Shown here: positions 2,064-31,541 of the stretch, in pieces
Numbering within the stretch: position 1 is the first letter of the stretch
Layout: each line of letters opens with the position of its first letter
Assembly (NCBI RefSeq): GCF_000014785.1
Contig: NC_008340.1
Span: 930,001 to 962,000, forward strand
Direction: 5' to 3'
DNA from: Alkalilimnicola ehrlichii MLHE-1
GTDB lineage: Bacteria > Pseudomonadota > Gammaproteobacteria > Nitrococcales > Halorhodospiraceae
Length of the DNA: 32,000 nucleotides
Made by a program: the position numbers and the translations under genes
The notes under the pieces: generated by a model
Databases searched by the model: none
The model's input: the letters and a program-made list of their open reading frames with translations, nothing else
Told to the model about the DNA's origin: nothing

Positions 2064-2222
2064 CGGCCTGAACGCCGTGGCGACGCATTGGTGTGCGCCC
2101 GCTGTCGCTGCGGTGGCCGGGGTGGCAATTGGGTTGCCCCGGCGATCGGCATGTTCATGCGGCAATCGATCAACTTACCGGGTAGACTACGGACGGTTTC
2201 TATAGGCTGGAATTCAAGGCGC

Positions 2223-2789: not shown

Positions 2790-2820
2790 CGCGCAGCGGC
2801 CCGTGGCAGGGCCTCGCGCC

Positions 2821-3168
2821 TCAGGCGAGCAGCTCCAGCAGCCGTTCCGGCGGCCGGCCGATGACGGCGCCCCGGTCGCTGACGCCGATGGGGCGTTCCA
2901 GTAGCCGGGGATGTTCTGCGATGGCCTGGAGCAGGGTCTCGCGGTCCAGGCCCGGGTCGTCCAGTGCCAGTTCCTTGTACAGCTTCTCCTTGCGCCGCAT
3001 CATGCCGCGCGGGTCATGGATGTCGAGCCGCTCCATCAGCGATGCCAGCTCGTCGGTGCCCGGCGGGGTCTTCAGGTATTGGATCACCTCCGGCTCCACG
3101 CCGTGGGCCTGCAGCAGTTTGAGCCCCTCGCGGGACTTGCTGCAGCGGGGGTTGTGGTAATAGCGCAT
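2821..3168 (-). CDS. arsC: ArsC-family reductase (glutaredoxin-type arsenate reductase / YfgD-like)
   Basis: The ATG at 3168 gives 115 aa, MRYYHNPRCSKSREGLKLLQAHGVEPEVIQYLKTPP...ERPIGVSDRGAVIGRPPERLLELL. It has the conserved YHNPRCSKSR active-site loop and overall colinearity with the ArsC/YfgD family. GGAGGAGA Shine-Dalgarno upstream. The longer track ORF (to 3243) adds non-homologous residues. Confidence 0.8.
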   Translation of the reverse strand: MRYYHNPRCSKSREGLKLLQAHGVEPEVIQYLKTPPGTDELASLMERLDIHDPRGMMRRKEKLYKELALDDPGLDRETLLQAIAEHPRLLERPIGVSDRGAVIGRPPERLLELLA

Positions 3169-3246
3169 GAGCGTCTCCTCCCGTAGTCCGGTTTCCATTT
3201 GTTCGCAATGGTTTGCCGCCGGCGCACAGCGGCCTCGGCCCAAGGC

Positions 3247-6660: not shown

Positions 6661-7943
6661 GCGTCCGCCGCCTTCTGCGCGAGCAGAGCATCCAGGGCGG
6701 CCGTGCCGGCCTGCCACAGGCGGTCGGCCACGGCCCGATCATCCAGGGGGACGGGCGCCAGGTCCTGCCAGTGCTTGTGGCGGCACTCCGCCTCCAGGGC
6801 CTCCCGCGCCTCAGCAACCAGATTGCGGTACTCCGGATCGTCCGGGCCGGCGCGCAGGGCGAGCAGCTGGGCGGCCAGCAACCCCGCCGGGCTTGCCTCC
6901 CGGGCCAGGTGGCTCAGGTCGATTTCGGGGAGGGTCTCCAGGTGCAGGCGGTTGACGAAGACATCGGGCGGGCCGGGTAGCAGGGGGCTGTCCCGCAACT
7001 CATCGGCCAGCCGGTCGCGGACGGTGCCGCCTTGATCGACGCGCCCGGTGAGGCGGACCTGCAGGCCGACCAGCCGGGGTTGCCAGGCCTCGCCCTGCAG
7101 CCTCGCCTGCAGCGCCCGGACCTGCTCCAGCAGGCGGGTGCGACCATCTGCCGCATCGTTGAGGCCGCTCAGGTCGACAGCCAGTTCGTACCATTGCAGA
7201 GGCGCCAGCGGCCACTGCCGGAGTTCGGTGATGCCGCGACCATCCAGGCGGTAGAGCCAAGGCCCGCGTGGCCCGATCTCCGTGCGGCGCAGGGCGGTGA
7301 CCGAGCCCAGGTAGCCGGAGGGGTGCCCGGGGTCCAGCGGGTCGGGCCGGTGGATGTGGCCCAGTAGCCAGGCGTCCAGCCCGGCGCGTTCCAATTCGCC
7401 GGAGCTGACCGGGGCGTAGGGGCTGTCGGCCTGGTCGCGGTCACAGTGGAGCAGGCCGAGCTGCGGGCAGGACGCCGGCGGGAAGCGGTGATCGGCCAGC
7501 GGACTCAGTGCGCGCCGGGCCTCGACGAATGACCAGCCATGGACGATGGCTTCGGTGCCGTCGCGGCCACACAGCCGGGCCGCCTGCCAGCTACCGTCGG
7601 CGCCGAGCAGTTCGAAACCGGGCAGCTCCCGGGCCAGCCGGGGCAGCACGGCGGTGTCATGGTTGCCGCTGACTCCGAGCACGCGGATACCGGCCTCAAC
7701 CAAGCGCCGGACCCCGGTATGGAGCAGGCCGTAGGCCTCGAAGAAGTCCTGCTCCTGCTCTACCACGTCACCGGCAAAGAGCACCGCATCCACCGGCTGG
7801 CGGATGGCCGCATCCACCAGCCGTTGCCACGCTGCTGCGGGACCCAGGCGCGCCGGGTCATGTTGCTCGACGACCGCCTGGGGCAGCCCGGCGGGGCGGC
7901 GGCCCAGGTGCAGATCGCCCACGGCGAGGATCTCGAGCGTCAT
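6657..7943 (-). CDS. Calcineurin-like metallophosphoesterase, SbcD/Mre11-like (YhaO-type) nuclease
   Basis: 428 aa from the ATG at 7943 (MTLEILAVGDLHLG...). Phosphoesterase motifs appear in order: GDLH, FAGDVVE, VSGNHD, LLGHIHRP. GGAGG lies upstream of 7943, whereas the alternative ATG at 7961 has no SD. Translationally coupled to the downstream ATPase gene. Confidence 0.8.
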   Translation of the reverse strand: MTLEILAVGDLHLGRRPAGLPQAVVEQHDPARLGPAAAWQRLVDAAIRQPVDAVLFAGDVVEQEQDFFEAYGLLHTGVRRLVEAGIRVLGVSGNHDTAVLPRLARELPGFELLGADGSWQAARLCGRDGTEAIVHGWSFVEARRALSPLADHRFPPASCPQLGLLHCDRDQADSPYAPVSSGELERAGLDAWLLGHIHRPDPLDPGHPSGYLGSVTALRRTEIGPRGPWLYRLDGRGITELRQWPLAPLQWYELAVDLSGLNDAADGRTRLLEQVRALQARLQGEAWQPRLVGLQVRLTGRVDQGGTVRDRLADELRDSPLLPGPPDVFVNRLHLETLPEIDLSHLAREASPAGLLAAQLLALRAGPDDPEYRNLVAEAREALEAECRHKHWQDLAPVPLDDRAVADRLWQAGTAALDALLAQKAADA

Positions 7944-8143
7944 GCCTGCGTGTTCCTCCATAAGGACCGATGGGTATTGTACAGGGGGCGACGCCGGTGC
8001 GAGACAAAGGGCATATGCTTATAACTGGAACGGCTATAATCTATCACCGTCTTCGGCAGGTTCTATTGGCCAGAATGGTTTTAAATCTATAACATTCGGA
8101 AACGTTGATACGGAACGACTGTCGCTAACCAAGAGAGGTCGAC

Positions 8144-8806
8144 ATGACTGAAGAAGTGAATGAACAGCAAGAGCCCGTCCTCGCCATGCCGCAGCTGAAC
8201 AAGCCGGCCCCGGACTTCGAGGCGCAGACGACCCACGGCCCGAAGAAGCTCAGCGACTACCGCGGCAAGTGGGTGGTGTTGTTCTCCCACCCGGCGGACT
8301 TCACCCCGGTCTGCACCACCGAGTTCATGGCCTTCGCCCAGCGGTCCGAGGACTTCAAGGCCCTGAATACCGAGCTGCTGGGGCTGTCCATTGATGGCAT
8401 CCATGCCCACGTTGCCTGGGTCCGCAACATCAAGGAGAACTTTGGCGTCGAGATCAACTTCCCGATCATCGCCGACCTGAACATGAAGGTCGCCAATGCC
8501 TACGGGATGGTGCAGCCGGGTGCCAGCGACACCTCCGCGGTGCGTGCCACCTTCTTCATCGATCCCGAGGGCATCCTTCGGGCCATGATCTACTACCCGA
8601 TGACCAACGGCCGCTCCATCGACGAGGCCCTGCGCCTGGTCAAGAGCCTGCAGACCTCGCAGGAGCACGGCGTGGCCACCCCCGAGGCCTGGCAGCCGGG
8701 TGATCCGGTGATCGTGCCGCCGCCGGCGACCGTCGAGGAGGCTGAGGCGCGCAAGGATCAGGGCTACGATTACGTGGACTGGTACTTCTGCAAGAAGACC
8801 CTGTAA
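8144..8806 (+). CDS. 1-Cys peroxiredoxin (Prx6 / LsfA-like)
   Basis: 220 aa. It has the AhpC/TSA fold signature with peroxidatic Cys in FSHPADFTPVCTTEF, plus the Prx6-type C-terminal extension. Preceded by an AT-rich intergenic region and followed by a strong terminator. Confidence 0.9.
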   Translation: MTEEVNEQQEPVLAMPQLNKPAPDFEAQTTHGPKKLSDYRGKWVVLFSHPADFTPVCTTEFMAFAQRSEDFKALNTELLGLSIDGIHAHVAWVRNIKENFGVEINFPIIADLNMKVANAYGMVQPGASDTSAVRATFFIDPEGILRAMIYYPMTNGRSIDEALRLVKSLQTSQEHGVATPEAWQPGDPVIVPPPATVEEAEARKDQGYDYVDWYFCKKTL

Positions 8807-8859
8807 TCGGTCCAGAGGCCTCCGCGTCATAGCAGTATGAGATGACGTTGATGGGTCCA

Positions 8860-8894
8860 GCCGGGGTGCCACTGCGGTATCCCGGCCTTTTTTA
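8860..8894 (+). terminator. Rho-independent terminator after the peroxiredoxin gene
   Basis: GCCGGGGTGCC-ACTGC-GGTATCCCGGC forms an 11-bp stem (two G-U pairs) with a 5-nt loop, followed directly by CTTTTTTAT. Confidence 0.75.
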
Positions 8895-8911
8895 TATGGG
8901 AGGAGCGCATC

Positions 8912-9778
8912 ATGCAGACCCCCCTGGTGGAACCTTTCTTCGACGACGATACCCACACCTATAGCTATGTGGTGCAGGACCCGGACAGCCGGCATTGTGC
9001 CGTTGTCGACAGCGTGCTGGACTACGATCCGGCCTCCGGGCGCACCAGCTATGCCGGTGCGGATCGCATCATCGCCTACGTCCGGGAGCACGGCCTGCAG
9101 GTGGACTGGATCCTGGAGACCCACGTGCATGCCGATCACCTGTCGGCGGCGCCCTATCTGCGCCAGGCCTTGGGCGGCCAGATGGGCATCGGCGAGAACA
9201 TCCGCATCGTGCAGGATGTCTTTGGCAAGCTGTTCAACGCCGGGCCGGACTTCCCGCGGGACGGCAGCCAGTTCGATCGGCTGTTCAGCGAGGGTGACAC
9301 CTTTTCCATTGGCGGCCTGGAGGGCCGGGTGTTGCACACCCCGGGCCATACCCCGGCCTGCCTGACCTACGTGATCGGCGACGCCGCCTTCGTCGGCGAC
9401 ACCATCTTTATGCCCGACTTCGGCACGGCGCGGTGCGACTTCCCGGGCGGGGACGCGCGGGCGCTGTACCGCTCCATCCAGAAGATCTTCGCGCTCCCGG
9501 ATGAGACGCGCCTGTTCATGTGCCACGACTACGGCGCCCCGGGCCGGGATGAGTACCAGTACATGACTACGGTGGGCGAGGAGCGCCGGCACAACGTGCA
9601 CGTGGGTGAGGGGATCAGCGAGGACGAGTTTGTGGCCATGCGCACGGCGCGGGACGCCGAGCTCGGCATGCCGCGGCTGATCCTGCCCTCGGTCCAGGTC
9701 AACATGCGCGCCGGTGAGATGCCGCCTGCGGAGGACAACGGGACGGTCTACCTGAAGATCCCGGTCAACAAGGTCTGA
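8912..9778 (+). CDS. MBL-fold metallo-hydrolase (glyoxalase II / persulfide-dioxygenase-like)
   Basis: 288 aa. Metallo-beta-lactamase metal-binding motif ETHVHADH, later HTPGHTP and CHDY. GGGAGGAG SD 7 nt upstream of the ATG. Substrate class cannot be assigned from sequence alone. Confidence 0.8.
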   Translation: MQTPLVEPFFDDDTHTYSYVVQDPDSRHCAVVDSVLDYDPASGRTSYAGADRIIAYVREHGLQVDWILETHVHADHLSAAPYLRQALGGQMGIGENIRIVQDVFGKLFNAGPDFPRDGSQFDRLFSEGDTFSIGGLEGRVLHTPGHTPACLTYVIGDAAFVGDTIFMPDFGTARCDFPGGDARALYRSIQKIFALPDETRLFMCHDYGAPGRDEYQYMTTVGEERRHNVHVGEGISEDEFVAMRTARDAELGMPRLILPSVQVNMRAGEMPPAEDNGTVYLKIPVNKV

Positions 9779-9899
9779 ACCGGGGCCGGTCTGCACTGCC
9801 GGTGGCGGACCGTCCGTCGTCGGCGGCCTCCGGCGGGCGGGTGGCGATGGTACACTGTGCGGTCATCCCAGCCGCTCAGACTCGTTACGGAGCCCTTGC

Positions 9900-13732: not shown

Positions 13733-14704
13733 CTAGAAGGTGCGGGCCACGCTGAAGCGGGCCAGCGCCTCTAGGGCTTGCTTCCACTCGGAATCGGGCA
13801 GGTGGGCCAGGCGATTCACGGCCTCTTCCGCTTCGTCCCGAGCGAGGCGCTGAGTATAAGGAATGGCACCGGTGTTTTCAATGGCCTGTTGCACGGCGGC
13901 AATGCGCGATATGCCCCCCTCGCTGATCGCCTCCCGGATGACCTGGCGCTCCTCGGCACTGCCGCGGGCCATGGCGTAGATCAGCGGCATGGTGGGCTTG
14001 CCTTCCGCCAGGTCGTCGCCGATGTTCTTACCGATCTCCTCCGCCTTGCCCGCGTAATCGAGGGCGTCGTCCACCAACTGGTAGGCGGTGCCCAGGTGCA
14101 GGCCGTAGGCGGCCAGGTGGTCGGTTTGCGCCTGCGGCAGCCCGGCAATGGTCCCGCCCAGGCAACAGGCGGCCTCAAACAACGAAGCGGTCTTGCGGTA
14201 AATGACGTCGCGGTAGCGGGCCTCGGAGACGTCCGGGTCGTGGCAGTTGAGCAGCTGCATCACCTCGCCCTCGGCGATGGTGTTGGTGGTGCGGGCCATC
14301 ACCTGCATGATCGGCAGCAGACCCACCTCCACCATCATCTCGAAGGCGCGGGTGTAGAGGAAGTCGCCCACCAGCACGGCGGCCTCGTTGCCCCAGATGC
14401 TGTTGGCGGTGTCCTGGCCGCGGCGGAGGGTGGATTCGTCGACCACATCGTCGTGCAGCAGGGTGGCGGTATGGATGAATTCGACCACCGCGGCCAGCTT
14501 GATATGGTGCTCGCCGCGGTAACCGGCCGCGCGGGCCGCCAGCAGCACCAGTAGCGGACGCAGGCGCTTGCCGCCGCTGTTGACGATGTAGTGGCCCATC
14601 TGGTCGATGAGCACGACTTCGGAACTCAGGCGCTCCTGGATCAGGCGGTTTACGGCGGCCATGTCGTCGGCTGCCAGATTCCGTATTGCGTCGATGTCCA
14701 TCAA
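13733..14704 (-). CDS. ispB: Octaprenyl diphosphate synthase
   Basis: 323 aa trans-prenyltransferase. First Asp-rich motif LLHDDVVDES, second YQLVDDALDY, and KRLRP near the N-terminus. Colinear with gammaproteobacterial IspB. Confidence 0.92.
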   Translation of the reverse strand: MMDIDAIRNLAADDMAAVNRLIQERLSSEVVLIDQMGHYIVNSGGKRLRPLLVLLAARAAGYRGEHHIKLAAVVEFIHTATLLHDDVVDESTLRRGQDTANSIWGNEAAVLVGDFLYTRAFEMMVEVGLLPIMQVMARTTNTIAEGEVMQLLNCHDPDVSEARYRDVIYRKTASLFEAACCLGGTIAGLPQAQTDHLAAYGLHLGTAYQLVDDALDYAGKAEEIGKNIGDDLAEGKPTMPLIYAMARGSAEERQVIREAISEGGISRIAAVQQAIENTGAIPYTQRLARDEAEEAVNRLAHLPDSEWKQALEALARFSVARTF

Positions 14705-20149: not shown

Positions 20150-22243
20150 ATGCCTACGGACAACGGACTGTACCTCGCCCTCTCGCGCCCCGGCGTGGCG
20201 GAGGCCGACCTGCCCCGGGTCACCGGGTTCACCCTGGATGAGCACCTCTCCCGGCCCTTCACCCTGACCCTGGACCTGGTCCACCCCTCACCCGATCTCG
20301 CCCCCGACGACTGGCTTGAGCAGGGCCTGGCCCTGGTGATCCATCAGGCCGGCCGCGTCACCCGCCGGGTCCACGGCGTGGTCACCGAGTTCCAGCGCGG
20401 CCGCACCGGCGCCCGGCGCACCGCCTACCAGCTGGTCGTCCGCCCCGCCCTCTGGCGGCTCTCCCTGCGCCGAAACTGCCGCATCTTCCAGCACGCCTGC
20501 CTGCTGGATGTCCTCCACACCCTGCTTTCGGAACATGGCATCACCGACGCCGCCTTCGCCGTCCGCCACCGCCCCGAGACCCGCGAGTACCTGGTGCAGT
20601 ACCGGGAGAGCGACCTGGCCTTTGTCCAGCGGCTTGCCGCCGAGTTGGGCATCGTCTACTTCCACGAGTTCGACGACACCCCCGAGGGCGGCCACCGCCC
20701 GGTGTTCACCGATACCCATCGGGGGTTGGGGCATGCGGGCGAATGGGTCTACCGCCCCCGCGCCGGCGGCGTAGCCGAGGCCCGCCATGTGCACACCCTG
20801 CGCGAGGCCCACCGGGTGCGCGCGCAGCGCGCCACCCTGGAGGATCGCCATTTCCGCACCCCCCGGCGGCGGCTGATCCACGCCCATGAGGCGGAGGGGG
20901 CCGAGTCGGGCGCCACCCCCTACGAGCACTACGACCACCCCGGCCGGTTTAAGAGCGAGGCCAGCGGCCGGGCCTTCACCCGGGTCCGGCTCGGCCAGTT
21001 GCGTGCCGACGCCCACACCGCCGAGGCCGAGAGCGATATCGCCGAGCTGCGCCCCGGCGTGCGCTTCACCCTGGATGGCCACGACGCCGGCGAACGGCGC
21101 CGGGACTGGCAGGTGGTCGGCGCCCGCCACACCGCCCGCCAGCCCGCCGCGCTGGAAGAGGACGCGATCCTGCTGGCCGCCGAGGGGCAGGGCGAGAACG
21201 AGGCAGGCGTGGCCCGGCTGAACAACCGGCTCACCCTCGTGCCCGCCGACACCGACTGGCGCCCGCCCCACGACCCGGACGCCGGCCCGCGCATGGAGGG
21301 CCCGCAGATCGCCCGGGTGGTGGGCCCCGAGGGGGAGGCGATCCACTGCGATGAGCACGGCCGGGTCAAGGTCCGTTTCCCCTGGGACCGCTACGCCGCC
21401 GATGACGAGCACGCCAGCGCCTGGCTGCGCGTCGCCCAGCCCTGGGCCGGGCCCGGCTACGGCGGGCTGTTCCTGCCCCGGGTGGGCCATGCGGTGATCG
21501 TCGACTTCATGGCCGGCGATCCGGATCAGCCGGTGATCACCGGCCGGGTCTACGATGGCCACAACACCCCGCCCTATCCGCTGCCCGAGCACAAGACCCG
21601 CAGCGTGCTGCGCAGCCGCAGCCAGGACGGTGAGGGCTACAACGAACTGCACTTCGAGGATGCCCGCGAGGCCGAGCGCATCCACCTGCACGCCCAGCGC
21701 GATCTCGACCTGCACACCCGCAACGACCGCTCCGAGACCATCGGCCGGCACAGCCACCTGGGCGTCCACGGCGACCGGCTCGCGGAGATCCACGGCGACG
21801 AGCACCTCACCGTGCAGGGCGAGCGGCGCGAGCGCACCGGTGGGGATCAGCATCTCAGCGTGGAGGGCACCCTGCATCTCAAAGCCGGTGAGGCCTGGCT
21901 AAGCGAATGCGGCCGGGAACTGCACGTCAAGTCGGGGCACAAGGCGGTCATCGACGCCGGCGCCGAGATCACCCTCCAGGCGGGCGGCAGTTTCATCAAG
22001 GTCGATCCCTCGGGCATCACCCTCAGCGGCCCCGGCATCCGCATGAACTCCGGTGGTCGCCCGGGCTCGGGATCGGGCCAACGCACGGCAACGCCCCTGT
22101 TGCCCGGGCGGGTCATGGCGGCGGAGGCCGATGGCTCCGCTAAGCCGGGACCTTCGGCGGTGCTCAAGCAGAGGTTCCTCCTGCACCAGGCCGCCCAGTC
22201 CGGGGCGGGCCTGTGCGAGGTATGTAGCGGCAAGGGAGAATAG
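20150..22243 (+). CDS. vgrG: Type VI secretion spike protein VgrG
   Basis: 697 aa. gp27-like N-terminal region (FTLDEHLSRPFTLTLDLV, YLVQYRESDLAFVQRLAAELGIVYF). gp5 OB-fold region (IARVVGPEGEAIHCDEHGRVKVRFPWDR...AWLRVAQPWAGPGYGGLFLPRVGHAVIVDFMAGDPDQPVITGRVY). Beta-helix repeats and GSFIKVDPSGITLSGPGIRMNSGG near the C-terminus. Confidence 0.93.
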   Translation: MPTDNGLYLALSRPGVAEADLPRVTGFTLDEHLSRPFTLTLDLVHPSPDLAPDDWLEQGLALVIHQAGRVTRRVHGVVTEFQRGRTGARRTAYQLVVRPALWRLSLRRNCRIFQHACLLDVLHTLLSEHGITDAAFAVRHRPETREYLVQYRESDLAFVQRLAAELGIVYFHEFDDTPEGGHRPVFTDTHRGLGHAGEWVYRPRAGGVAEARHVHTLREAHRVRAQRATLEDRHFRTPRRRLIHAHEAEGAESGATPYEHYDHPGRFKSEASGRAFTRVRLGQLRADAHTAEAESDIAELRPGVRFTLDGHDAGERRRDWQVVGARHTARQPAALEEDAILLAAEGQGENEAGVARLNNRLTLVPADTDWRPPHDPDAGPRMEGPQIARVVGPEGEAIHCDEHGRVKVRFPWDRYAADDEHASAWLRVAQPWAGPGYGGLFLPRVGHAVIVDFMAGDPDQPVITGRVYDGHNTPPYPLPEHKTRSVLRSRSQDGEGYNELHFEDAREAERIHLHAQRDLDLHTRNDRSETIGRHSHLGVHGDRLAEIHGDEHLTVQGERRERTGGDQHLSVEGTLHLKAGEAWLSECGRELHVKSGHKAVIDAGAEITLQAGGSFIKVDPSGITLSGPGIRMNSGGRPGSGSGQRTATPLLPGRVMAAEADGSAKPGPSAVLKQRFLLHQAAQSGAGLCEVCSGKGE

Positions 22244-22245
22244 CC

Positions 22246-22767
22246 ATGGATCACGGCGCATGGATGATGATCGATGGGGCGATCAACCCCGGGGCATTGC
22301 CCGCCATCTTCAGAGACGACGCCGGCGGCAGCGGCGCGATGGCCGTCCTGCATGGGACGGACTACGCGGCGATCGCCGACTCTGGGCCTTTGCTCGTGCG
22401 CGCAGGAGCGGGCAGCCACCTGATGGCGCAGTGGCGTGCAAACGAGCTGCCCGCACGCCACGCCTGGGTCTTTCAGAGTGACCGATCGGACGAGGAGGTT
22501 GCGGCCTTCTGGCGGCGTCGGCTGTTTTTCCTGGCGCCGGACGGGCGGCGATTCTGGTTCCGGTTCGCCGATGCCCGGGTCATGAGCAGAGCGCATGGGG
22601 ACAGGGCGCTCCCTGAAGGGTTCTGGCAGGGTCTTTCCGGCGTGCGTTTCCACCCACGACAAGCCGTCTGGTCCCCCGTGGACGAGGCGCGGGAGGGTGC
22701 GGACACCGGTGAATTCGTCATCAGCGAGGGGCAAGCGCAACGTATTGCCGGAGGGGCGGCGTCATGA
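22246..22767 (+). CDS. DUF4123-family T6SS effector adaptor/chaperone (Tap/Tec/VasW-like)
   Basis: 173 aa, starting 2 nt after the vgrG stop. DUF4123-like features are MIDGAINPGALPAIF, GPLLVRA and RFWFRFADARV (the family FR-[FY]-x-D-x-R-V motif). It is short for the family. Its stop overlaps the effector start (ATGA, 22764-22767). Confidence 0.75.
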   Translation: MDHGAWMMIDGAINPGALPAIFRDDAGGSGAMAVLHGTDYAAIADSGPLLVRAGAGSHLMAQWRANELPARHAWVFQSDRSDEEVAAFWRRRLFFLAPDGRRFWFRFADARVMSRAHGDRALPEGFWQGLSGVRFHPRQAVWSPVDEAREGADTGEFVISEGQAQRIAGGAAS

Positions 22768-25370
22768 CCATCGCCCAGTGCCCCTTGCTCGCCGCCATCG
22801 TCCCCGTCCGGTACGCCATCGGGGTCAACGGGGTGTCCAGCCCCTTCCTGGAGGACTTCGACCTGCCACCGTTGCAAGGCCGGCCGGTCACCGAGAGCCA
22901 GGGGTCTCCGGACGAGGCGGCTCCGCTGCGTTACGTCGCCCGGCCCCTTCGCAATGGCTGGTGTTACGTCTGGTTAGACAGCCAGCAACGGCTGGTCGAA
23001 TACCGGGTGCGCGGCAGCGCGCTGGAGGAGACCGATCGGGCCGGCGCCCCCATCGGGCCCACCGCCAGGGTCTGCATCTACGTACCGGCGGGCGAGACGG
23101 CCGCCATCGCCTGGTCCCCGGTGCGCTGGAGCGATGAGCAGTTCACCGCCATCGGGCGAGACGACGGCAGGCGCCGGGCCGTGATGCGCGAATTCGTGCC
23201 CGGCCAGGGGCCAGCCAGCAGCGCCGATGCCTGGTCGAACGAGATCCCTGAACTCGGCGAGTTTGACGAAAGGGACTTCCACTGGAGTATCGAGCAGCCC
23301 GCCACCCTGCCCGTATGGGAGGACATCAAGCGTGCGGTGGACGATGCCGAGCAGCACGCCACCGTGCTGGTGGACGACCCCTGGGGGGTGGTCATCGAAC
23401 TGGCCCACCTGGTGCGCCAGGGCCAGGCGCAGCGCGCCGACTGGCTCGCCAACGAAGGCGAGGAACGCATTCTGGCCGAGAACATCCTGGCCCTGGACCG
23501 TCAGGGCGAGGGCTTTCGCGGGCGACTCCCGCGGCTGGCCGACCGCGACCGCCTCGAGCAGGCCATTCACCACCATGGGCGGGAAATTAGGGCCATCGAG
23601 GAGAACCTCGATACCCTGGCCGCCGACTGGGCGCGCTGGATGGGCACCCTCTGGGGGGGCGAAGGCCCCGAGTCCATGGCCTCCGCCCAGAGCCACTTCG
23701 ACCCCTCGCTTGACGAACACCACGAGGCGATGGAAACCCTCTGGAGCGCGGCCCTGGGCGGTGTCACCCAATACGAAACCGGTGCCACCCTGGCCACCAA
23801 CCTGCTGGATCCCGATACCGGCCCCCCGGTCATGCCCGGCGGCCACTCCCTGTGGACGGCACTGTTGGGGCGGTTAGAACCGGTGCAACTGGCCGATGTC
23901 CAGCGCCTGGTCGGGGTCAGCGAGTCCCTGCAGGCCCAGGACTGGGAAACCTGGGCCCACAGCCTCAACCACCTGGCCGGACAGCTGGGCCACGGCCTGG
24001 CCACGGCCCGCGAGGGGCTGTTCCTCGTGCTCGCCACCACCATTGGGCCCATTCTCCGGGAACAGGGCGCCACCTCCGCCCACCGGACCCTGATCGCCGG
24101 CTATCTCGCCGCCGCGCTGGCGCGCAGCCGGCAGCGCCTGAAAGTGGAGTCGGTCGCCGCGCGCGCCCTGTTGGACTGGATGAACGAACCCAGCGCCCGC
24201 GCCGCCGGCGCCCCGTCGCCCCTGTACCAGATGCGCCCCGACCTGCTGCCCGAGCTCGACGCCCGGCAGGTCATCACCATCCGCGTGGTCGCGGAGGGCG
24301 CTTCTTCCGCCGAGGGCAACCCCTTCCTGCAGCGCGCCCTGCAGGAGGCCCCGCTGAAAAGCCTGCTGGTGCTGATGAATGGGTTGGTGGTGGTTCATGC
24401 GGGCAGCCAATTGGCCGCCGGTGATCGTTCCGTACAGACCGCAACAGCGGCGGCTGGGGGCGTATCCGGCACCATCAGCGCCACCGCCGCCACCATTCAG
24501 CACTTCGCGCAGATCCGCTCCGACGACATCCTTGCCCGCCAGGGCCTGTCCGCCGGCTGGCGGGGCGCCTTCGACCGCTACCTCCTCTGGGGTCAGGCCA
24601 CCAACCTGACTCTGTCGATCACTGCGGTCTTCGACGCCGTCTACTTCGGCTACGGCGCCTGGGAGAGCGTCCGCCAGGGGGATCGCCGATCGGGCACCAT
24701 CCAGGCCGGCATGGCCACGGCCGCCGCCGGCCAGACCGCCGCCGGCGCCCACGCCTTCCACACCTACCGCCAGGCCCGGCAAGCCCTGCTCGTGGGCCGG
24801 TCCACCCAGGCCGCGCGCACCGCCGCCCGGGCCCGGATCGCACCGGCCGTGATCCTCGCCCTGACGCTGGTCATCGTCGCCGGCGCGGTCAGCCTGCGCT
24901 TCACCCGCGACAACGAACTGGAACACTGGCTGCGCCGTACCCGCTTCGGCACCCACCCGGCCGACTGGGCCGGCGACCTGGACGAGGAACTCGGCCACCT
25001 CTACCGGCTGCTCTACCAGCCACGCATCCGGCTGGAGGCCCGCCAGGCCCGTAACCCCCGCTCCGGCGATGTCTACCACTACCGTGTCCTGCTGGTCACC
25101 TTCCCCGGCGCCACGCCCTTCCCGGGCATGTTCACCCTGGAGGCCACCGAGCGCTGGCGCACCGGGCTGGTCCGGCATGACGAACGCAGCCGGACCATCA
25201 CCGAAAAGGATCTCGACCTCGACATCGGCGGGGCGGAGGCGCCCGACGGCCCCGTCTACCGACTCATCTACCACAACACCCGGGAAGGCGACCGGCTGAG
25301 CTCCCTTTCCGGCACCCTGTACTATCGCCCGTTCCCCGATCTCACCCTGCCTCCCATCCGGATCAACTAG
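22764..25370 (+). CDS. VasX-like (BTH_I2691-family-like) membrane-active T6SS effector
   Basis: 868 aa. The N-terminus CPLLAAIVPVRYAIG plus GWCYVWLDSQQRLVEYRV matches my recollection of the VasX N-terminal loading domain. A cluster of hydrophobic/Gly-Ala helices at residues ~530-712 (LKSLLVLMNGLVVVHAG; LWGQATNLTLSITAVFDAVYFGYGAW; IAPAVILALTLVIVAGAVSL) suggests a pore-forming toxin. Its position after vgrG and DUF4123 mirrors V. cholerae vgrG2-vasW-vasX. Confidence 0.7.
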   Translation: MTIAQCPLLAAIVPVRYAIGVNGVSSPFLEDFDLPPLQGRPVTESQGSPDEAAPLRYVARPLRNGWCYVWLDSQQRLVEYRVRGSALEETDRAGAPIGPTARVCIYVPAGETAAIAWSPVRWSDEQFTAIGRDDGRRRAVMREFVPGQGPASSADAWSNEIPELGEFDERDFHWSIEQPATLPVWEDIKRAVDDAEQHATVLVDDPWGVVIELAHLVRQGQAQRADWLANEGEERILAENILALDRQGEGFRGRLPRLADRDRLEQAIHHHGREIRAIEENLDTLAADWARWMGTLWGGEGPESMASAQSHFDPSLDEHHEAMETLWSAALGGVTQYETGATLATNLLDPDTGPPVMPGGHSLWTALLGRLEPVQLADVQRLVGVSESLQAQDWETWAHSLNHLAGQLGHGLATAREGLFLVLATTIGPILREQGATSAHRTLIAGYLAAALARSRQRLKVESVAARALLDWMNEPSARAAGAPSPLYQMRPDLLPELDARQVITIRVVAEGASSAEGNPFLQRALQEAPLKSLLVLMNGLVVVHAGSQLAAGDRSVQTATAAAGGVSGTISATAATIQHFAQIRSDDILARQGLSAGWRGAFDRYLLWGQATNLTLSITAVFDAVYFGYGAWESVRQGDRRSGTIQAGMATAAAGQTAAGAHAFHTYRQARQALLVGRSTQAARTAARARIAPAVILALTLVIVAGAVSLRFTRDNELEHWLRRTRFGTHPADWAGDLDEELGHLYRLLYQPRIRLEARQARNPRSGDVYHYRVLLVTFPGATPFPGMFTLEATERWRTGLVRHDERSRTITEKDLDLDIGGAEAPDGPVYRLIYHNTREGDRLSSLSGTLYYRPFPDLTLPPIRIN

Positions 25371-25372
25371 CC

Positions 25373-26389
25373 ATGCAGCACCTACGCCGGTTCTTCGCCG
25401 ATCTCTCCCGCAATATCGGGCTGGCCGACGAGGTCATCACCCTGCGCCCCGACCGGCGCGCCGCCGCTCAGCCCATGCAGGCCGGCGATGTCCAGGACCA
25501 GACCGAGCACTACCTCGACCTTTCCACCGGCAGCTCAAGGGGCCTGTGGACCGGCATGTGGGGATTGATCTCGCTTTTGATGTTCTTACTGATGTTACCG
25601 ATTCTCTTTCAGGACTGGGAGGGGGTGGTCTTTGTTTTCAAGTTCATCGGTGCCATGGCCGGCGTCACCCTCTTCTTCTTCCTGCTCGAGGTTTTCTGGC
25701 CCGCGGCCCTGCCCCTGCGCTTCAATCGCCGCACCCGCGAGGTCTACTTCCAGGACGGCAAAAAGCTCTACCACACCCCCTGGGACGAGGCCGTCGCGTG
25801 GCTGCAGGAAACCCGCCAGGTCACCCACCATGCCGGCGTCAACCGGCTCACCCCGCTGCAGATCCTCCTCCAGCGCTTCCAGCAGCCCGACGAGGTCATC
25901 GCCGTCAACCTCAACCTCCCCATGGGCCACACCGCCCAAACCCAGGCCATGCTCTGGGAGTACCTGCGCTGTTACATGGAAAACGGCCCCTGGTTCGACG
26001 AGCAGGGCCGAAACACCCCCGAATCCACCCGCCAGGCGGTGCGCAAGCGCTTCGCCCAGCGCAATCGCACGGGCAAGATCGACATCGAACTCCACCGCGA
26101 GTTCGTCAACATGGGCGTCATGACCCGGGATGAAAAGTGGTTCACCAATGCCTTCCAGGCCGTCATGCTGCCCGCCCTCGTCCTGCGTGACTTTGTCTGG
26201 CAGCTCGCCCAGCGCCGGGCCGCACGCAGCCAGTGGCACCCCCTCGTGCGCGAACGCTGCCGCGCCGACGGCCCCACCTCCCGACTTTACGACATTGAGC
26301 GCGACCAGGGCCTGCACCCCGACGCCTCGCAAACCCTCCATCCCCACACCCAGCGTCGCTCTTCTCCGCACGAACCATCGAAGGCCTGA
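25373..26389 (+). CDS. Two-TM membrane protein, putative cognate immunity protein
   Basis: 338 aa, with the ATG 2 nt after the effector stop. Two adjacent TM helices (GLWTGMWGLISLLMFLLMLPILF; FIGAMAGVTLFFFLLEVFWPAAL) precede a soluble domain. The immunity role is inferred from position only. I recognise no named family. Confidence 0.55.
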   Translation: MQHLRRFFADLSRNIGLADEVITLRPDRRAAAQPMQAGDVQDQTEHYLDLSTGSSRGLWTGMWGLISLLMFLLMLPILFQDWEGVVFVFKFIGAMAGVTLFFFLLEVFWPAALPLRFNRRTREVYFQDGKKLYHTPWDEAVAWLQETRQVTHHAGVNRLTPLQILLQRFQQPDEVIAVNLNLPMGHTAQTQAMLWEYLRCYMENGPWFDEQGRNTPESTRQAVRKRFAQRNRTGKIDIELHREFVNMGVMTRDEKWFTNAFQAVMLPALVLRDFVWQLAQRRAARSQWHPLVRERCRADGPTSRLYDIERDQGLHPDASQTLHPHTQRRSSPHEPSKA

Positions 26390-28446
26390 TGTCGTTGAAC
26401 CTGGCGCCTCACATTGCCAATGCAGGCGACGCCCATATGCCTGAGTGGCCGGGCGAAGCCGGTGACGCCGAGCGTAACGACCTGGAGTCGCCCGCCGAGC
26501 TCTATTCGCAGCATCGCGAAGCCATAGAGCAGGTCACTGCCCGTTCAGGCGGCCACACGGGCTTCATTGGCGGGGCGCTGGCGCCCAACGGCATCGTCGA
26601 CGTGATCCGCCGGCAGGCGATGGAAGACTTCCTGGCCTATGCCACCCCGATGCAGGCGCAGTGGCAGAGCGAGTATCACCGTATCGGGGCCGACCTGGCC
26701 GCCATACTGCCCACCTGGCACACCCAGGCCCTGCTGCTCGACCGCGAAGAGGAGCATCACATCCTGCTGACCTGCCTGCTGGAAAAGCAGGCCGTCGAGA
26801 CCCTGCTGGCCTGCGGGCAGGAGGACTTCCTGTCGAGCTACTACGCCGGCGACGACCCGGTACCGGCACACCTGATGCATTACGTCCCCACCGCGTCCTT
26901 CGTGGAGGGATTCCTTTCCCAAAACACTGGCCTCCAGAAAGCGCTCACCCAGGCGTCCGCACTGATGGGCGCCCAGGGCGCACTCAGCCGCTACCAGCAG
27001 TGGCGGGGCGAGGTTGAACATCAGACCGGGCTGCGCTTTCGCAGCGTCGAGGGCCTCTCCGACGAAGCCCGAACCGCCATCGCGGGCGAAGTGCAAATCA
27101 AGGAGAAGCTGCTGGGGCAGGCGGTGCTCGGGACGTTGCTCGATGACGTACAGGATGTCGACCTGGGGCAGCGCATCACTACCCTGGCTTCGCGCTTGCC
27201 CGATGGGCAACGGCTGATGTTCGCGGAACGGCTGGGCCTGCTGGAGCTGGGCTGGGACATTCCCGATCAATCGGTACTGGGCCGCATCCAGCAGGCGCTG
27301 GACGACACCGATACGGCCATGACCCGGCTGACCGCGCTGGAGCGGGAGCTCGAGCAACTCCGGCGGAAACGCCAGCAGGAGATGGCGCGCGCGTCAAGGC
27401 GCGGTACCCGCCAGGCCCACCGCCGGGCGGCCGACCAATTCAACGCGCGCAAGATCCGGGAGGCCCAGGCAGACATCAACCGGCACAAGCGCCTGCTGGG
27501 CGAGGCATTCGACGCCCTGGCCGAGACCCGTGCGGCCGCCGGCAGCCCGGCGCAACTGGAGCGCTGGGCCAGGGTAGCCAATGGGGCGATGGGGGCCGTG
27601 GCCCTATTGGGTGGCCTTTCAGGTGCTCTCGAGGTTTTCAAGCAATCTCGGCGTATCGACCGCGCAGACACCGACGCCGAGCGACTGGCCTCACAGGTTG
27701 CCTTTACGGGCGCGGCCGGAGTCGCCCTGGGTGGCCTATCAATCGGCATCATGAGTATGGTCGGTCGAACCCTGGGCAAGCCGGCCGTCGCCTGGCGACT
27801 GCTGCTGCTCAAATTCGCCGGCCCCGCCGGCTGGGTGGTGGCGGTTGGCACCGCCCTGCTGATCATCGGCGAGGTGCTGGCCAATCGCTTCTCGTTGAGC
27901 CCTGTGCAGCGCTGGTGCCAGCGCAGTCACTGGGGGCGAGAAGATCAGGGCTGGGATCGCGAGGCCCACGAGCGGGAACTGGCCCGACTTGGCGATACCG
28001 ATCTCACGGTGGAACGGCAGGGGCAGGCCGAGCCCCATGGCGGCCCGGGGCCCGGGCCGGCAGGCACCGACCTCGCCATACGCATTGGCTTGCCCGGGCT
28101 TGACGCCCCCAATGCGGAAAACCTCGCGCTGGGCCTCTGGGGCGTCACCCCTCGCCTCAAGGAAATGACCCGAGACTTTCTCGAACATGCCGAGCTCGAA
28201 ACCCGGGGCTCGAGCTATGCCCTGCACTACCATTTCGATCCCGAAACATTGGCCGAATGCCACGAGTTCCGCCTCGTCATCCGCACGAAGGGCCCCGAAG
28301 CATCCACCACCCGGGTCTTCCAGTTGCATCGCCGCGGCACATCGCTCTCCGATGAGTGGAGGGAGATCTCCGCCCTCGGCGATCGTTTCCTCACGCGGTA
28401 CCAAGTGGGCAACTGGCCGGACATGCCCCTGACGCCCTGGCCGTGA
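26389..28446 (+). CDS. Paralog of the VasX-like effector lacking the N-terminal loading domain (putative second toxin)
   Basis: 685 aa. The ATG shares one base with the preceding TGA (TGATG at 26387-26391). Three hydrophobic helices lie at residues ~396-500 (GAMGAVALLGGLSGALEVF; VAFTGAAGVALGGLSIGIMSMVG; GPAGWVVAVGTALLIIGEVLA). They are followed by NRFSLSPVQRWCQRSHWGREDQGWDREAHERELARL. This aligns by eye with RFTRDNELEHWLRRTRFGTHPADWAGDLDEELGHL, which follows the last helix of the 868-aa effector. There is no PVRYA-type N-terminus. Confidence 0.55.
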   Translation: MSLNLAPHIANAGDAHMPEWPGEAGDAERNDLESPAELYSQHREAIEQVTARSGGHTGFIGGALAPNGIVDVIRRQAMEDFLAYATPMQAQWQSEYHRIGADLAAILPTWHTQALLLDREEEHHILLTCLLEKQAVETLLACGQEDFLSSYYAGDDPVPAHLMHYVPTASFVEGFLSQNTGLQKALTQASALMGAQGALSRYQQWRGEVEHQTGLRFRSVEGLSDEARTAIAGEVQIKEKLLGQAVLGTLLDDVQDVDLGQRITTLASRLPDGQRLMFAERLGLLELGWDIPDQSVLGRIQQALDDTDTAMTRLTALERELEQLRRKRQQEMARASRRGTRQAHRRAADQFNARKIREAQADINRHKRLLGEAFDALAETRAAAGSPAQLERWARVANGAMGAVALLGGLSGALEVFKQSRRIDRADTDAERLASQVAFTGAAGVALGGLSIGIMSMVGRTLGKPAVAWRLLLLKFAGPAGWVVAVGTALLIIGEVLANRFSLSPVQRWCQRSHWGREDQGWDREAHERELARLGDTDLTVERQGQAEPHGGPGPGPAGTDLAIRIGLPGLDAPNAENLALGLWGVTPRLKEMTRDFLEHAELETRGSSYALHYHFDPETLAECHEFRLVIRTKGPEASTTRVFQLHRRGTSLSDEWREISALGDRFLTRYQVGNWPDMPLTPWP

Positions 28447-28466
28447 CAACAAGGGACAGGACCTCC

Positions 28467-29801
28467 ATGCCCAGATCAACCATCGACGATACGTTACCCC
28501 CTATGCGCGCCGGCGAGCGCGAAAGCCGCGCCGGCGGCGAGCAGTACTGCCTGAGCCCTCTGCCCCTGCCCATCGACAGCGAACACGGCGTGGACGTGGC
28601 TCACATCGACGTGCGCCACGACGAGGTCACGATGGACCTGCGCCAGGGCGCCACCCCCGAGAGTCTCCTGGTTACGGGGCATATTGCCAGTGGGCTCATG
28701 ACTTTTTTGGCAGGACTGGCCCTCGTTTTCTTGCTGAGTGCCGTGTACAAGGGATCCCTTCCCTTCGAACTGGTAGTAGCAGGAGTGGGGGTTACTTACG
28801 GAATTGCGCTGTTTCCCTTCTTCATCGGCATTCTCTATCCCGATGTCATACTGAGGCGCATCCCACCCATTCGCCTGCATCGCCAACGCCGCGAGGTGGC
28901 CTTCGTGGTGGAGAGCCGGGGACAGAGCATTTGGTTACCCGACCCAACTAACATGTGGTTGGCGTCCACGGCCGGCACCATTGCCATGCTCACCGGATTT
29001 TTTGCAATATGGGATTCTGTGGAGTTTTTCCGCCCTGACGTTGAGGCGGCATTTCCTCTCATGATGCTGCTCCTGCATATCGCCTCCCTGGCCTTCCTGC
29101 CTCTCTATCCCTATTTCCATGACTTCTGCCGCAAGCTCGTCGGCCAACAACGCCAGACGGTGCTGGTCCCCTGGGAGGACGTGGTCGCCCTGGCGGTCTT
29201 CAACCCAAACCTCAGCGCCGGGGCGGTCACCGGCTTCGGCTGGAACTTCGCTCTGATGCCGCCCGATCCGGAACGACCCGGCTATACCCTGCCCGGGGCC
29301 GGCATCATCGTCGGGGTCGGCGGCCTCCCGGGCGCGCTGGCCCAGTGGGAGTACATCCGCCGCTTCATGGAGGAGGGGCCCGAGGCCATCACCTCTTCCG
29401 CCCGGGAGTGGGGCCTCGAGTGGTACGACGCCTACGTGGCCCGGGAAAAGGCCGAGTGCGAACGCACCCACGACAAGGCCCGCTGGCGGCGCTTTCGGCG
29501 CGAGCAGTGGTGGAATCATGCACGCTTCGCCCACTGGTACACCGAGTACCGCATGAAGCATGTGCTGCCCAAGGCGGTGCCCAAGGGCTGGCTGGCGGGG
29601 TGGTCCAGGCCCCTTCCCCGGGACCAGTGGGCCCGACCTTCGCGCGAACTCACTGAACTCGGCGAACAGCTACGCGCGGCCTACCAGCGCGGCGAGAAGT
29701 TCATCAAGATGGGCAATATCGAGAAACGCTTTGGGGTCGAGGTAGAGCCCTCCCCAGGTACGGCTTATCGCACACTGCCATTTGCGGCCAGCGCGGCCTG
29801 A
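28467..29801 (+). CDS. Four-TM membrane protein, paralog of the 25373-26389 product (putative second immunity protein)
   Basis: 444 aa from the ATG at 28467, 20 nt after the upstream stop. The track start at 28356 would overlap by 91 nt. Shared blocks with the 338-aa protein are IRLHRQRREVAFV vs LRFNRRTREVYF, VPWEDVVAL vs TPWDEAVAWL, and LAQWEYIRRFMEEGPEA vs AMLWEYLRCYMENGPWF. Two extra TM helices are inserted between the first two blocks. Confidence 0.55.
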   Translation: MPRSTIDDTLPPMRAGERESRAGGEQYCLSPLPLPIDSEHGVDVAHIDVRHDEVTMDLRQGATPESLLVTGHIASGLMTFLAGLALVFLLSAVYKGSLPFELVVAGVGVTYGIALFPFFIGILYPDVILRRIPPIRLHRQRREVAFVVESRGQSIWLPDPTNMWLASTAGTIAMLTGFFAIWDSVEFFRPDVEAAFPLMMLLLHIASLAFLPLYPYFHDFCRKLVGQQRQTVLVPWEDVVALAVFNPNLSAGAVTGFGWNFALMPPDPERPGYTLPGAGIIVGVGGLPGALAQWEYIRRFMEEGPEAITSSAREWGLEWYDAYVAREKAECERTHDKARWRRFRREQWWNHARFAHWYTEYRMKHVLPKAVPKGWLAGWSRPLPRDQWARPSRELTELGEQLRAAYQRGEKFIKMGNIEKRFGVEVEPSPGTAYRTLPFAASAA

Positions 29802-29804
29802 GCC

Positions 29805-30105
29805 GGCGCCATGAGCCAGACACCAACCGTTACGCTGCTCCAGGCTGCCCAGCCCAGAGCGGGCCTGTAAAAGGTATGCGGCGGCAAAGGAGTAAGGCCA
29901 TGGACCAAGGCGCCATGGCCGTCCTGCATGGCACGGCCTACTCGACATCGGTGGGGCGGAGGCGCCCGACGGCCCCGTCTACCGATTCATCTACCACGAC
30001 ACCCGGGACGGCGACCGGCTGAGCTCCCTTACCGGCACCCTGTACTATCGCCCGTTCCCCGATCTCACCCTGCCCCCCATCCGGATCAACTAGCCATGCA
30101 GCACC
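29805..30105 (+). pseudogene. Composite remnant: vgrG 3' end + DUF4123 5' end + effector 3' end + first codons of the immunity-like gene
   Basis: 29941-30105 matches 25218-25382 with about 6 mismatches in 165 nt (my by-eye alignment). That segment encodes the last 50 effector codons, the TAG, and CCATGCAGCACC. 29838-29940 matches the 22178-22372 junction (vgrG tail, stop, adaptor start) at lower identity. It has a premature TAA where the vgrG tail has Cys (GL*KVCGGKG vs GLCEVCSGKGE), a ~26-codon deletion in the adaptor, and an out-of-frame adaptor/effector fusion. Confidence 0.8.
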
Positions 30106-30791
30106 GGCGTCGGCGCGACCTGGGCATCGAACTGATGCTCGATGCCCCCGAGGGCTTCACCAGCGACTTCACGGGGCCGGCCGCCGAAATGACGGCATCG
30201 TCGCGGTACCCCTGCCGGACCCGCATGAGCGCCGAGCAGGACAGCGTCTTCCGGCGCGCGGCGGGGCATGCGCTGGTGTTTGTCCTGCCCGTGGGGCACC
30301 CCGAAGCTCCCACGTCGCCCAGCTCCGTCTGGTCAAGACCGCAGAGCGGGTGAGGGTAGTGGTCGACGGGCCGGCCATCTCTCGCGTGCTGGTGGGCTTG
30401 GCGATTTACAATTTGGCCGGTGAACTCGCAGGGTTACTTCACGTTGACCCAGACGAAGAGATTAGTTTGCAGGAGGCGAGGCTTGGTAGTGCAGGCCTCG
30501 ATCTGGTTGCGGCGTCCTGTTCCTGTCCATATCGACTCCCATCAGAGGGTGGTGGAGGATGCCGAACTGGTCCAGCACGAGGGTCGGCAGGACCGCGAGT
30601 TTTACAAGTCGGATGACTGGTGGTGGAACCACAAGCGGATCAGCTGCCTGAAGAGCCAGCTAGGGCTCTCAGTGGTATTGATAGGCTTCCCACCCAATCA
30701 ACTACCCCTGGCGCCAACTATGCTGCCAGTTGACCCCACAGATCGGCTGAATCGACATGGGCGCCTACCGGGAACAGCAGGCCCGGCAGAA

Positions 30792-30946: not shown

Positions 30947-31261
30947 ATGTACGCCGTTATCAAGACCGGAGGCAAGCAGTACAAGGTCTCCGAGGGAGAC
31001 GTCCTGCGCGTCGAGAAGCTCGCCGGTGAGGCGGGCGCTTCCGTGGAGTTCGACCAGGTTCTGATGGTCGGCGAGGGCGACGACGTCAAGGTCGGCGCGC
31101 CCACCGTGGAGGGCGGCAAGGTGACCGCCGAGGTGCTGGGTCAGGGCCGTGCCCGCAAGATCGAGATCCAGAAGTTCAAGCGCCGCAAGCAGTATCGCCG
31201 CTTCGCCGGTCATCGGCAGCAGTTCACCGAGGTCAAGATCACCGGCATCTCCGCCGGCTGA
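30947..31261 (+). CDS. rplU: 50S ribosomal protein L21
   Basis: 104 aa, [25 protein letters not shown]...[13 protein letters not shown]. This is canonical L21. GGAG SD upstream. Confidence 0.95.
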
Positions 31262-31280
31262 TTCGGGAGGTTCAGCACTC

Positions 31281-31541
31281 ATGGCACACAAGAAGGCAGG
31301 CGGCAGCACTCGTAACGGCCGCGATTCAGAGAGTAAGCGTCTTGGCGTGAAGCGCTTTGGCGGTCAGAACGTGCTGGCCGGCAACATCCTGGTGCGCCAG
31401 CGTGGCACGCACTTCCACGCCGGTGAGAACGTCGGTCTGGGCAAGGACCACACCCTGTTCGCGAAGGCGGACGGTCAGGTGGTCTTCGAGCGCAAGGGCC
31501 CGCGCAACCGCCGCTACGTCAGCGTGCGCACCGTGCAGTAA
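31281..31541 (+). CDS. rpmA: 50S ribosomal protein L27
   Basis: The ATG at 31281 gives 86 aa, [52 protein letters not shown]... This is canonical L27. GGGAGG SD. The track ORF start at 31149 is an out-of-context upstream extension overlapping rplU. Confidence 0.95.

Follow-up and report, generated by a model that had tools for sequence, protein, structure and literature searches.

The window examined here comprises 32,000 nucleotides of the genome of Alkalilimnicola ehrlichii MLHE-1, and coordinates are given as window positions. On its plus strand, positions 26389-28446 contain an open reading frame (ORF) of 685 codons (Mlg_0842, ABI56196), annotated as 'hypothetical protein' and shortened in RefSeq to 669 residues by moving the start to Met17. 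It is essentially certain that the ORF derives from a VasX-type toxin gene by 5' truncation and internal deletion. The ORF is probably the deletion relic of a second pore-forming effector of the VasX/BTH_I2691 family in a type VI secretion system (T6SS) effector-immunity array, retained as the passenger of an orphan immunity gene.

Descent of the ORF from a full-length VasX toxin

A BLASTP comparison relates the ORF product to a 1099-residue protein annotated as toxin VasX (ABI55399, here P0002), which is encoded elsewhere in the MLHE-1 genome. Residues 1-379 of the product are 92% identical to residues 272-650 of P0002, and residues 356-685 are 89% identical to residues 768-1099. P0002 contains a VasX_N domain at residues 27-100 (E 1.1e-22), whereas no Pfam match to VasX_N/MIX was obtained with the ORF product. 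In an alignment of the ORF product with 14 full-length homologs (A1), it groups with Halomonas and Thioalkalivibrio proteins of 1146-1150 residues; the remaining VasX relatives, from Halomonas, Vreelandella, Billgrantia, Thioalkalivibrio and metagenomes, are 1146-1151 residues long and possess VasX_N. Full-length counterparts of the ORF are present both in the same genome and in other genera. The NCBIfam model BTH_I2691_fam (NF041559) matches ORF residues 386-528 over model positions 717-849 with an E value of 3.2e-8, at 32.6 bits relative to a cutoff of 150. To judge from the approximately 90% identity to P0002, the ORF clearly descends from the VasX/BTH_I2691 family.

Both A. ehrlichii VasX copies share a deletion of 47 residues that is found in no other homolog in A1 and therefore derive from one lineage. 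The deletion occupies A1 columns 336-382, which corresponds to about residue 333 of P0002 and to window positions ~26570-26575. The 1099-residue 'full-length' protein is thus itself internally shortened.

Breakpoints of the relic

The following features, all on the plus strand, define the relic:

26354-26356, plus: 5' deletion junction, at which the 3' end of the DUF6708 gene is fused to VasX-type codon ~261 (blastn against the related contig L008; start of VasX homology)
26357-28446, plus: VasX-type toxin relic, ancestral residues 261-650 and 789-1099 (BLASTP and tblastn to P0002; family alignment A1)
26389-28446, plus: the 685-residue open frame within the relic
27514-27525, plus: scar of the internal deletion, the one surviving copy of the 12-nucleotide repeat GCnCTnGCCGAn, encoding 'ALAE' (aligned at the DNA level with the two flanks in L009 and L001; blastn)

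As determined by tblastn with P0002, VasX-derived DNA starts at 26356/26357, 33 nucleotides 5' of the ATG. The in-frame translation across this start reads LFSARTIEGL-MSLNL, the same as P0002 residues 262-276. By this comparison, the ATG at 26389 is an internal codon, Met272, of the ancestral gene, and the upstream DUF6708 gene has its TGA from the ancestral CTG-ATG (Leu271-Met272) read in another frame. The final 11 codons of the DUF6708 gene ('RRSSPHEPSKA') and its stop are an out-of-frame reading of VasX DNA, and the C-termini of DUF6708 homologs are unlike that of the window copy. An earlier, sequence-only reading of this DNA had noticed the ORF, which is real, and the overlap of its ATG with the DUF6708 TGA at 26387-26391, which it took as an argument for expression of the ORF. 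The overlap exists, but it is no argument for expression, since both codons are ancestral VasX coding sequence.

The closest relative of this region is a Joint Genome Institute metagenome contig of 5634 nucleotides with an 868-type locus (L008). It is collinear with window positions 21589-26353 at 92.8% nucleotide identity, and the blastn match ends exactly at 26353. Downstream of its DUF6708 gene, L008 repeats 69 codons from the 5' end of that gene (L008 positions 4788-4994); VasX codons 1-186 come next, with the N-terminus intact, and run to the end of the contig. The most straightforward reading is that the intervening DNA and VasX codons 1-260 were deleted in the MLHE-1 lineage. A chance overlap of the DUF6708 tail with the VasX codons was ruled out: the native DUF6708 end in L008, 'TQGPH' plus stop, diverges exactly where the VasX homology starts. 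The junction sequence had 0 exact matches in a scan of metagenomes. In L008, a frameshift near codon 730 breaks the 868-type effector gene (positions 1182-3789) in two.

The N-terminal loss amounts to ~260-271 residues, with the ORF starting at ancestral residue 272. The absence of an N-terminal loading domain had been recognized from the sequence alone; its size had been put at about 180 residues, and a second, internal loss has to be added. The latter is an in-frame deletion of 139 codons between two 12-nucleotide direct repeats, GCnCTnGCCGAn, both coding for 'ALAE'. The blastn segments 26575-27524 and 27514-29806 overlap at the surviving repeat (27514-27525), and the peptide at the deletion junction of Mlg_0842 is FDALAETRAAAG. 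Slippage or deletion through short homology typically produces a loss of this kind.

What the relic lost and what it kept

The domain organization of the family is known from solved structures and the dissection of Tke5 and Ptx2 (PMC12909789; bioRxiv 10.1101/2025.04.30.651342). The MIX domain, residues 17-238 in Tke5 and 36-259 in Ptx2, binds the DUF4123/Tap adaptor. The alpha-helical region that follows contains the membrane-inserting helices and is sufficient for periplasmic toxicity, and the beta-rich C-terminus is dispensable in the family members that have been dissected. Toxin located in the cytoplasm is harmless, as shown for Ptx2 (bioRxiv 10.1101/2025.04.30.651342).

When the A1 profile was compared with the solved Ptx2 chain 9qpv_A, the match was limited to profile positions 6-248. 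This is the part that the ORF is missing, which places the 5' truncation at the boundary between MIX and the alpha-helical region. According to Kyte-Doolittle plots, P0002 has four hydrophobic segments, the first of which (residues 715-735) lies inside the 139-residue deletion. The ORF product keeps three, at residues 396-417, 436-459 and 471-503, the same number of hydrophobic helices that had been described before. An AlphaFold2 model of P0002 based on the 15-sequence alignment outlines a helical part at residues 233-948 and strands at 954-1090; support from this model is weak given its poor quality (mean predicted local distance difference test score 45, predicted template modelling score 0.28).

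The array in which the relic lies

The relic is part of a vgrG-headed auxiliary T6SS cluster on the plus strand of the window. A complete set of VgrG, DUF4123, VasX_N effector and DUF6708 genes at 20150-26389 lies directly 5' of it, and the other members of the array are as follows:

20150-22243, plus: VgrG spike gene, 697 residues (Pfam Phage_GPD, Phage_base_V and Gp5_trimer_C; ABI56192)
22246-22767, plus: DUF4123 (Tap) adaptor gene, 173 residues (Pfam DUF4123, E 1.6e-17)
22764-25370, plus: full-length VasX/BTH_I2691-family effector with VasX_N (MIX), 868 residues (Pfam VasX_N, E 4.7e-15; NCBIfam BTH_I2691_fam, E 1.4e-33)
25373-26389, plus: DUF6708 membrane protein, 338 residues (Pfam DUF6708; tail compared with homologs)
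28467-29801, plus: intact 444-residue multi-pass membrane protein, P0035 (comparison with P0036; homologous loci)
29836-30113, plus: third remnant, ~280 nucleotides, of the whole VgrG-DUF4123-868-DUF6708 module (self-blastn, tblastn, alignment A6)

The 868-residue effector is the loadable effector of this locus, and the 338-residue DUF6708 protein is presumed to be its immunity protein. The 444-residue protein P0035 is 84% identical to P0036, the immunity protein encoded beside the full-length toxin. Homologs of its gene are located 3' of the VasX gene in all 12 other loci with downstream DNA, while the sequences of L007 and L011 end inside the VasX gene. P0035 is probably the cognate-type (orphan) immunity protein of the relic.

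The third remnant contains the 3' end of vgrG, DUF4123 codons 1-5 and ~30-41, the last 50 codons and the stop of the 868-type effector gene, and DUF6708 codons 1-6. In a self-comparison by blastn, 29941-30113 is 94.8% identical to 25218-25390 and 29909-29944 matches 22333-22368; tblastn identified residues 819-868 of the 868-residue effector. The module has been reduced to ~280 nucleotides by several independent internal deletions. In a simple promoter/terminator scan, neither a sigma-70-like site inside or 5' of the ORF nor an intergenic terminator came up.

At the other MLHE-1 locus, strand and gene order were inferred from consecutive accessions (ABI55396-ABI55401; proteins P0208, P0210, P0112, P0036 and P0002). 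It contains:

VgrG-family gene, annotated as 320 residues: ~240 residues identical to the window VgrG, then an unrelated C-terminal tail
One gene of unassigned function, between the VgrG-family gene and VasX
ABI55399: full-length VasX, 1099 residues (P0002)
ABI55398: immunity protein, 443 residues (P0036)
ABI55397: 171-residue chimera (P0208) of DUF4123 residues 1-16 and 868-type effector residues 732-868
ABI55396: intact DUF6708 gene

The two loci are reciprocal: in each, a single loadable effector and its immunity gene come first, and behind them stand a truncated copy of the other's effector and an intact immunity gene. The DUF6708 protein of the other locus carries the same VasX-derived tail as that of the window, which indicates that the junction between DUF6708 and VasX predates the separation or homogenization of the loci. 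The two DUF6708 proteins are 90% identical and, as in the pair P0035/P0036, the differences are located mainly in the transmembrane (TM) helices.

Recurrence among homologous loci

The survey of genomes and metagenomes covered 13 homologous VasX-type loci and the 868-type locus L008 (L001-L014 together). Remnants or extra immunity genes recur in them. In Thioalkalivibrio ALE10 (L001), an 81-residue C-terminal VasX fragment precedes a second immunity gene; Halomonas C05BenzN (L003) possesses a VasX copy 5'-truncated to about residue 545; and L005, L006 and L013 contain tandem immunity genes. The MLHE-1 truncation boundary itself occurs in none of the other surveyed loci; the match in L012 begins at residue 263, but this is at the end of the contig. 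In L013 (3823-3841 and 4739-6029), VasX is frameshifted near residue 808 and the first immunity gene is also frameshifted, while the second is intact. The AT-richer spacer between the immunity gene and the 5'-truncated VasX of L003 contains a long CA/TG-type microsatellite (8680-8860) that translates as HTHTHT...HSHSHS or MAMAMA.

Two further observations concern the surroundings of the array. An ispB-like polyprenyl synthetase gene and rplU-rpmA are neighbours in many Gammaproteobacteria. In the window, the polyprenyl synthetase gene (13733-14704, minus strand) and rplU-rpmA (30947-31541, plus strand) are ~16 kb apart, and the stretch between them contains a BCCT transporter, a DEDD exonuclease, a cNMP/CBS/DUF294 protein and the whole T6SS auxiliary array, which suggests that the ispB-rplU interval is an insertion hotspot. 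A 569-residue ORF without Pfam or NCBIfam match (8087-9796, minus strand) lies in the stretch of lowest guanine-plus-cytosine content of the window (0.597 at 8001-9000).

Recombination between the relic and related alleles

Of the 685 sites, 52 differ between the relic and P0002, and they are strongly clustered. The two proteins are identical over ORF residues 58-289, 462-604 and 607-685, in runs of 232, 143 and 79 residues, and the longest of these runs was reached in 0 of 100000 simulations. Over residues 301-360, the ORF has the residue of another allele, P0004, at 57 of 60 positions; P0002, in contrast, agrees there with P0003. When the differences were polarised with the other homologs, both variants were found to segregate in the family at 31 of the 52 sites, while 9 changes are private to P0002 and 10 to the relic. 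These data are clear evidence of past recombination between the relic and related alleles.

The most divergent patch of the toxin, ORF residues 410-461, coincides with the TM hairpin. As the immunity proteins also differ mainly in their TM helices, this pattern suggests that the relic and its partner immunity protein represent a distinct specificity variant. Accelerated decay of the relic is not evident. In this protein-level comparison, the observed differences would be equally compatible with youth, homogenization and purifying selection.

A probable passenger relic and the points that speak against it

According to the explanation we favour, the ORF persists as a passenger. Because it lacks MIX, the product would be unable to bind the DUF4123 adaptor or VgrG and would thus not be loaded onto, or fired by, the T6SS. 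Toxins of the VasX family act only from the periplasm, and a cytoplasmic product would for this reason be harmless and selectively near-neutral. Any translation might proceed through fortuitous coupling to the DUF6708 stop codon. The element under selection would be the orphan immunity gene, which may shield the cells against kin with the matching toxin variant. The frame could still be open because the relic is young, has been patched by recombination with related alleles, or both.

Several observations weigh against this explanation. All 685 codons are open, without frameshift or stop; the start overlaps the upstream stop and is preceded by GAAGG 4 nucleotides 5', which could allow translation. 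The truncation at the MIX/alpha boundary and the in-frame internal deletion fit the boundary of a folded domain. In Tke5, the alpha-helical part without MIX is toxic if exported to the periplasm (PMC12909789), so that the fragment might have remained active. With 10 lineage-specific changes compared with 9, the relic has not accumulated more of them than the full-length copy and shows no sign of decay. Only 4 of 224 family-invariant columns are changed, a number within the range of 1-17 found in full-length members; 3 of the 4, among them two Leu-to-Pro changes, are located within ORF residues 1-36. A literature search on the locus tags retrieved no paper mentioning them and no expression data.

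The relic as a possible recombination cassette

The main rival explanation is an orphan toxin cassette, in which the MIX-less copy and its immunity gene would serve as a silent reservoir for recombinational switching of the toxin-immunity type, as in Rhs/CdiA systems. Recombination with the VasX gene of the other locus or with incoming DNA would then swap the region that determines TM and immunity specificity. The patchy differences, with a longest identical run that no simulation reached, the P0004-like stretch in the ORF opposite a P0003-like one in P0002, and the sites at which both variants segregate all point in this direction. The TM-hairpin patch and the TM-helix differences of the immunity proteins look like a distinct specificity type, and orphan activation has been obtained by experiment (Koskiniemi et al. 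2014, as cited in PMC5361080). However, the 139-codon deletion would be passed into any recombinant spanning it and yield a defective toxin, and the patchiness documents past recombination, not selection for a reservoir. In addition, the same process has produced the neighbouring remnants 29836-30113 and P0208, which are clearly debris without function. A reservoir of this kind is therefore a minority view, to which we concede some but not much probability. A slightly smaller chance is left to a bolder version, in which the two vgrG loci form a reciprocal, actively exchanging pair, gene conversion shuffles the TM specificity patch, and the ORF is no debris but a working recombination cassette by which a cargo T6SS effector, neither Rhs nor CdiA, switches its toxin-immunity type.

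Three roles had been suggested in the sequence-only reading: an orphan toxin module similar to those of Rhs/CdiA, a partner that piggybacks on the first effector, and a structural or immunity component. The first comes closest to the evidence, whereas the other two found no support.

A conceivable new role of the truncated protein

These latter roles amount to an expressed MIX-less protein with a new function, either a co-effector carried on the 868-residue effector or an intracellular immunity partner or decoy, whose translation would be coupled to that of DUF6708. The stop/start overlap with the weak Shine-Dalgarno-like GAAGG 5' of it, the intact frame with its conserved residues, and the truncation at the MIX/alpha-helical boundary defined for Tke5 and Ptx2 would agree with such a function. 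One T6SS study reportedly deals, to judge from its title, with binary effector/co-effector modules. Against a new function, the start, the overlap and the Shine-Dalgarno-like motif are all inherited coding sequence (I-E-G-L-M) and have not been shaped for initiation; the same truncated form occurs in no other surveyed locus, and the closest relative, L008, has the full N-terminus. The ORF product has neither a signal peptide nor another export feature. Apart from the fortuitous stop/start overlap there is no positive evidence for a new role, which is highly improbable.

Relation to the adjacent 868-residue effector

The sequence-only reading had proposed that the ORF is a loader-less paralog of the 868-residue effector, shares its back end and probably a mid-region with it, and has a basic coiled-coil of its own. 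By pairwise BLASTP the two proteins show no significant similarity; the best match (E 0.22) is at chance level and lies in an unrelated segment. A profile-profile alignment had been advised as a check. For this purpose the 868-residue protein was aligned with 13 relatives from an exhaustive HMMER search (A3), and hhalign of A1 against A3 aligned 240 C-terminal columns with a probability of 94.6% and an E value of 6.6e-8, pairing P0002 residues 729-1000 with residues 541-800 of the 868-residue protein. The aligned region consists of the hydrophobic helices and the motif RFSLSPVQRWCQRSxWG, opposite RFTRDNELEHWLRRTRFG in the 868-residue protein. The Trp and the [FW]-Gly of the motif (W-x5-[FW]-G) are invariant across A1 and A3, and the NCBIfam BTH_I2691 model matches both proteins. 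As far as profiles can tell, the common C-terminal block reflects a real, ancient superfamily homology. The mid-region was aligned by neither hhalign nor BLASTP, and the coiled-coil is conserved in every full-length homolog (A1 columns ~620-690). Matches of P0002 obtained by tblastn on the antisense strand of the 868-residue gene and at window positions 7026-7409 were judged to be artefacts of Ala/Gly-rich composition.

A tandem duplicate of the adjacent effector that lost its loading domain is refuted and retains next to no probability: membership in the same superfamily and the profile-level similarity of the C-terminal TM-helix region, including W-x5-[FW]-G, stand against the nonsignificant BLASTP result, the ~90% identity of the ORF to P0002, and the different immunity families of the two effectors (the 338-residue DUF6708 protein versus the 444-residue protein).

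Significance

Mlg_0842, annotated as 'hypothetical protein', can be reassigned as a VasX toxin gene that has decayed; the gene paired with it is probably that of an orphan immunity protein. The locus provides a breakpoint-resolved example of erosion in the effector-immunity arrays of the VasX/BTH_I2691 family, which was structurally characterized only recently. Several modes of erosion are on view, namely a deletion at the MIX/alpha boundary, a slippage deletion between 12-nucleotide repeats, and smaller nested remnants, and reciprocal relics occur at two loci of one genome. If it is true that the relic still exchanges with the full-length gene, orphan-cassette switching would extend from Rhs/CdiA to MIX cargo effectors. 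As it stands, the MLHE-1 relic is an ordinary product of known processes.

Comparison with known systems

The relic derives from a true member of the VasX/BTH_I2691 effectors, which include VasX of Vibrio cholerae, Tke5 of Pseudomonas putida and Ptx2/TpeX of Pseudomonas aeruginosa. Like them, it has the helical centre, here with three hydrophobic segments, the motif RFSLSPVQRWCQRSxWG and the beta-rich C-terminal part, and a membrane immunity gene is located 3' of it. Unlike them, it has neither the N-terminal MIX/VasX_N domain, to which the DUF4123 adaptor binds, nor the 139 residues that include the first hydrophobic segment, and it scores far below the NCBIfam cutoff.

In the T6SS of V. cholerae, arrays of orphan immunity genes arise by effector displacement (Kirchberger et al. 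2017, PMC5361080). The MLHE-1 array resembles them in the position of the relic 3' of a complete VgrG-adaptor-effector-immunity set, in the sequence of a 5'-truncated effector followed by an intact immunity gene of the cognate type, in its several tiers of remnants, in the existence of full-length counterparts elsewhere, and in the signatures of recombination. It differs in the unusual length of the remnant, 685 codons that comprise the whole toxic region minus one segment, and in the presence of a full-length counterpart in the same genome, at a locus that contains the reciprocal relic. Furthermore, L008 points to internal deletion in an array of two effectors and not to displacement by an incoming module.

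Rhs/CdiA orphan modules (Koskiniemi et al. 2014; Jackson et al. 2009, both as cited in PMC5361080) likewise consist of the 3' part of a toxin gene without a delivery-competent 5' part, paired with an immunity gene, and their homology to the full-length gene can be used for recombination. For them recombinational activation is on record; the MLHE-1 relic is likened to them from its sequence. It originates from a VasX cargo effector without the sharp constant/variable boundary of the PAAR/Rhs or CdiA polymorphic toxins, its homology to the full-length gene extends over the whole fragment, and it bears an additional internal deletion. The MLHE-1 case thus joins a kind already known, the orphan effector remnant accompanied by an orphan immunity gene, and is unusually well resolved and set in a neat reciprocal arrangement of two loci.

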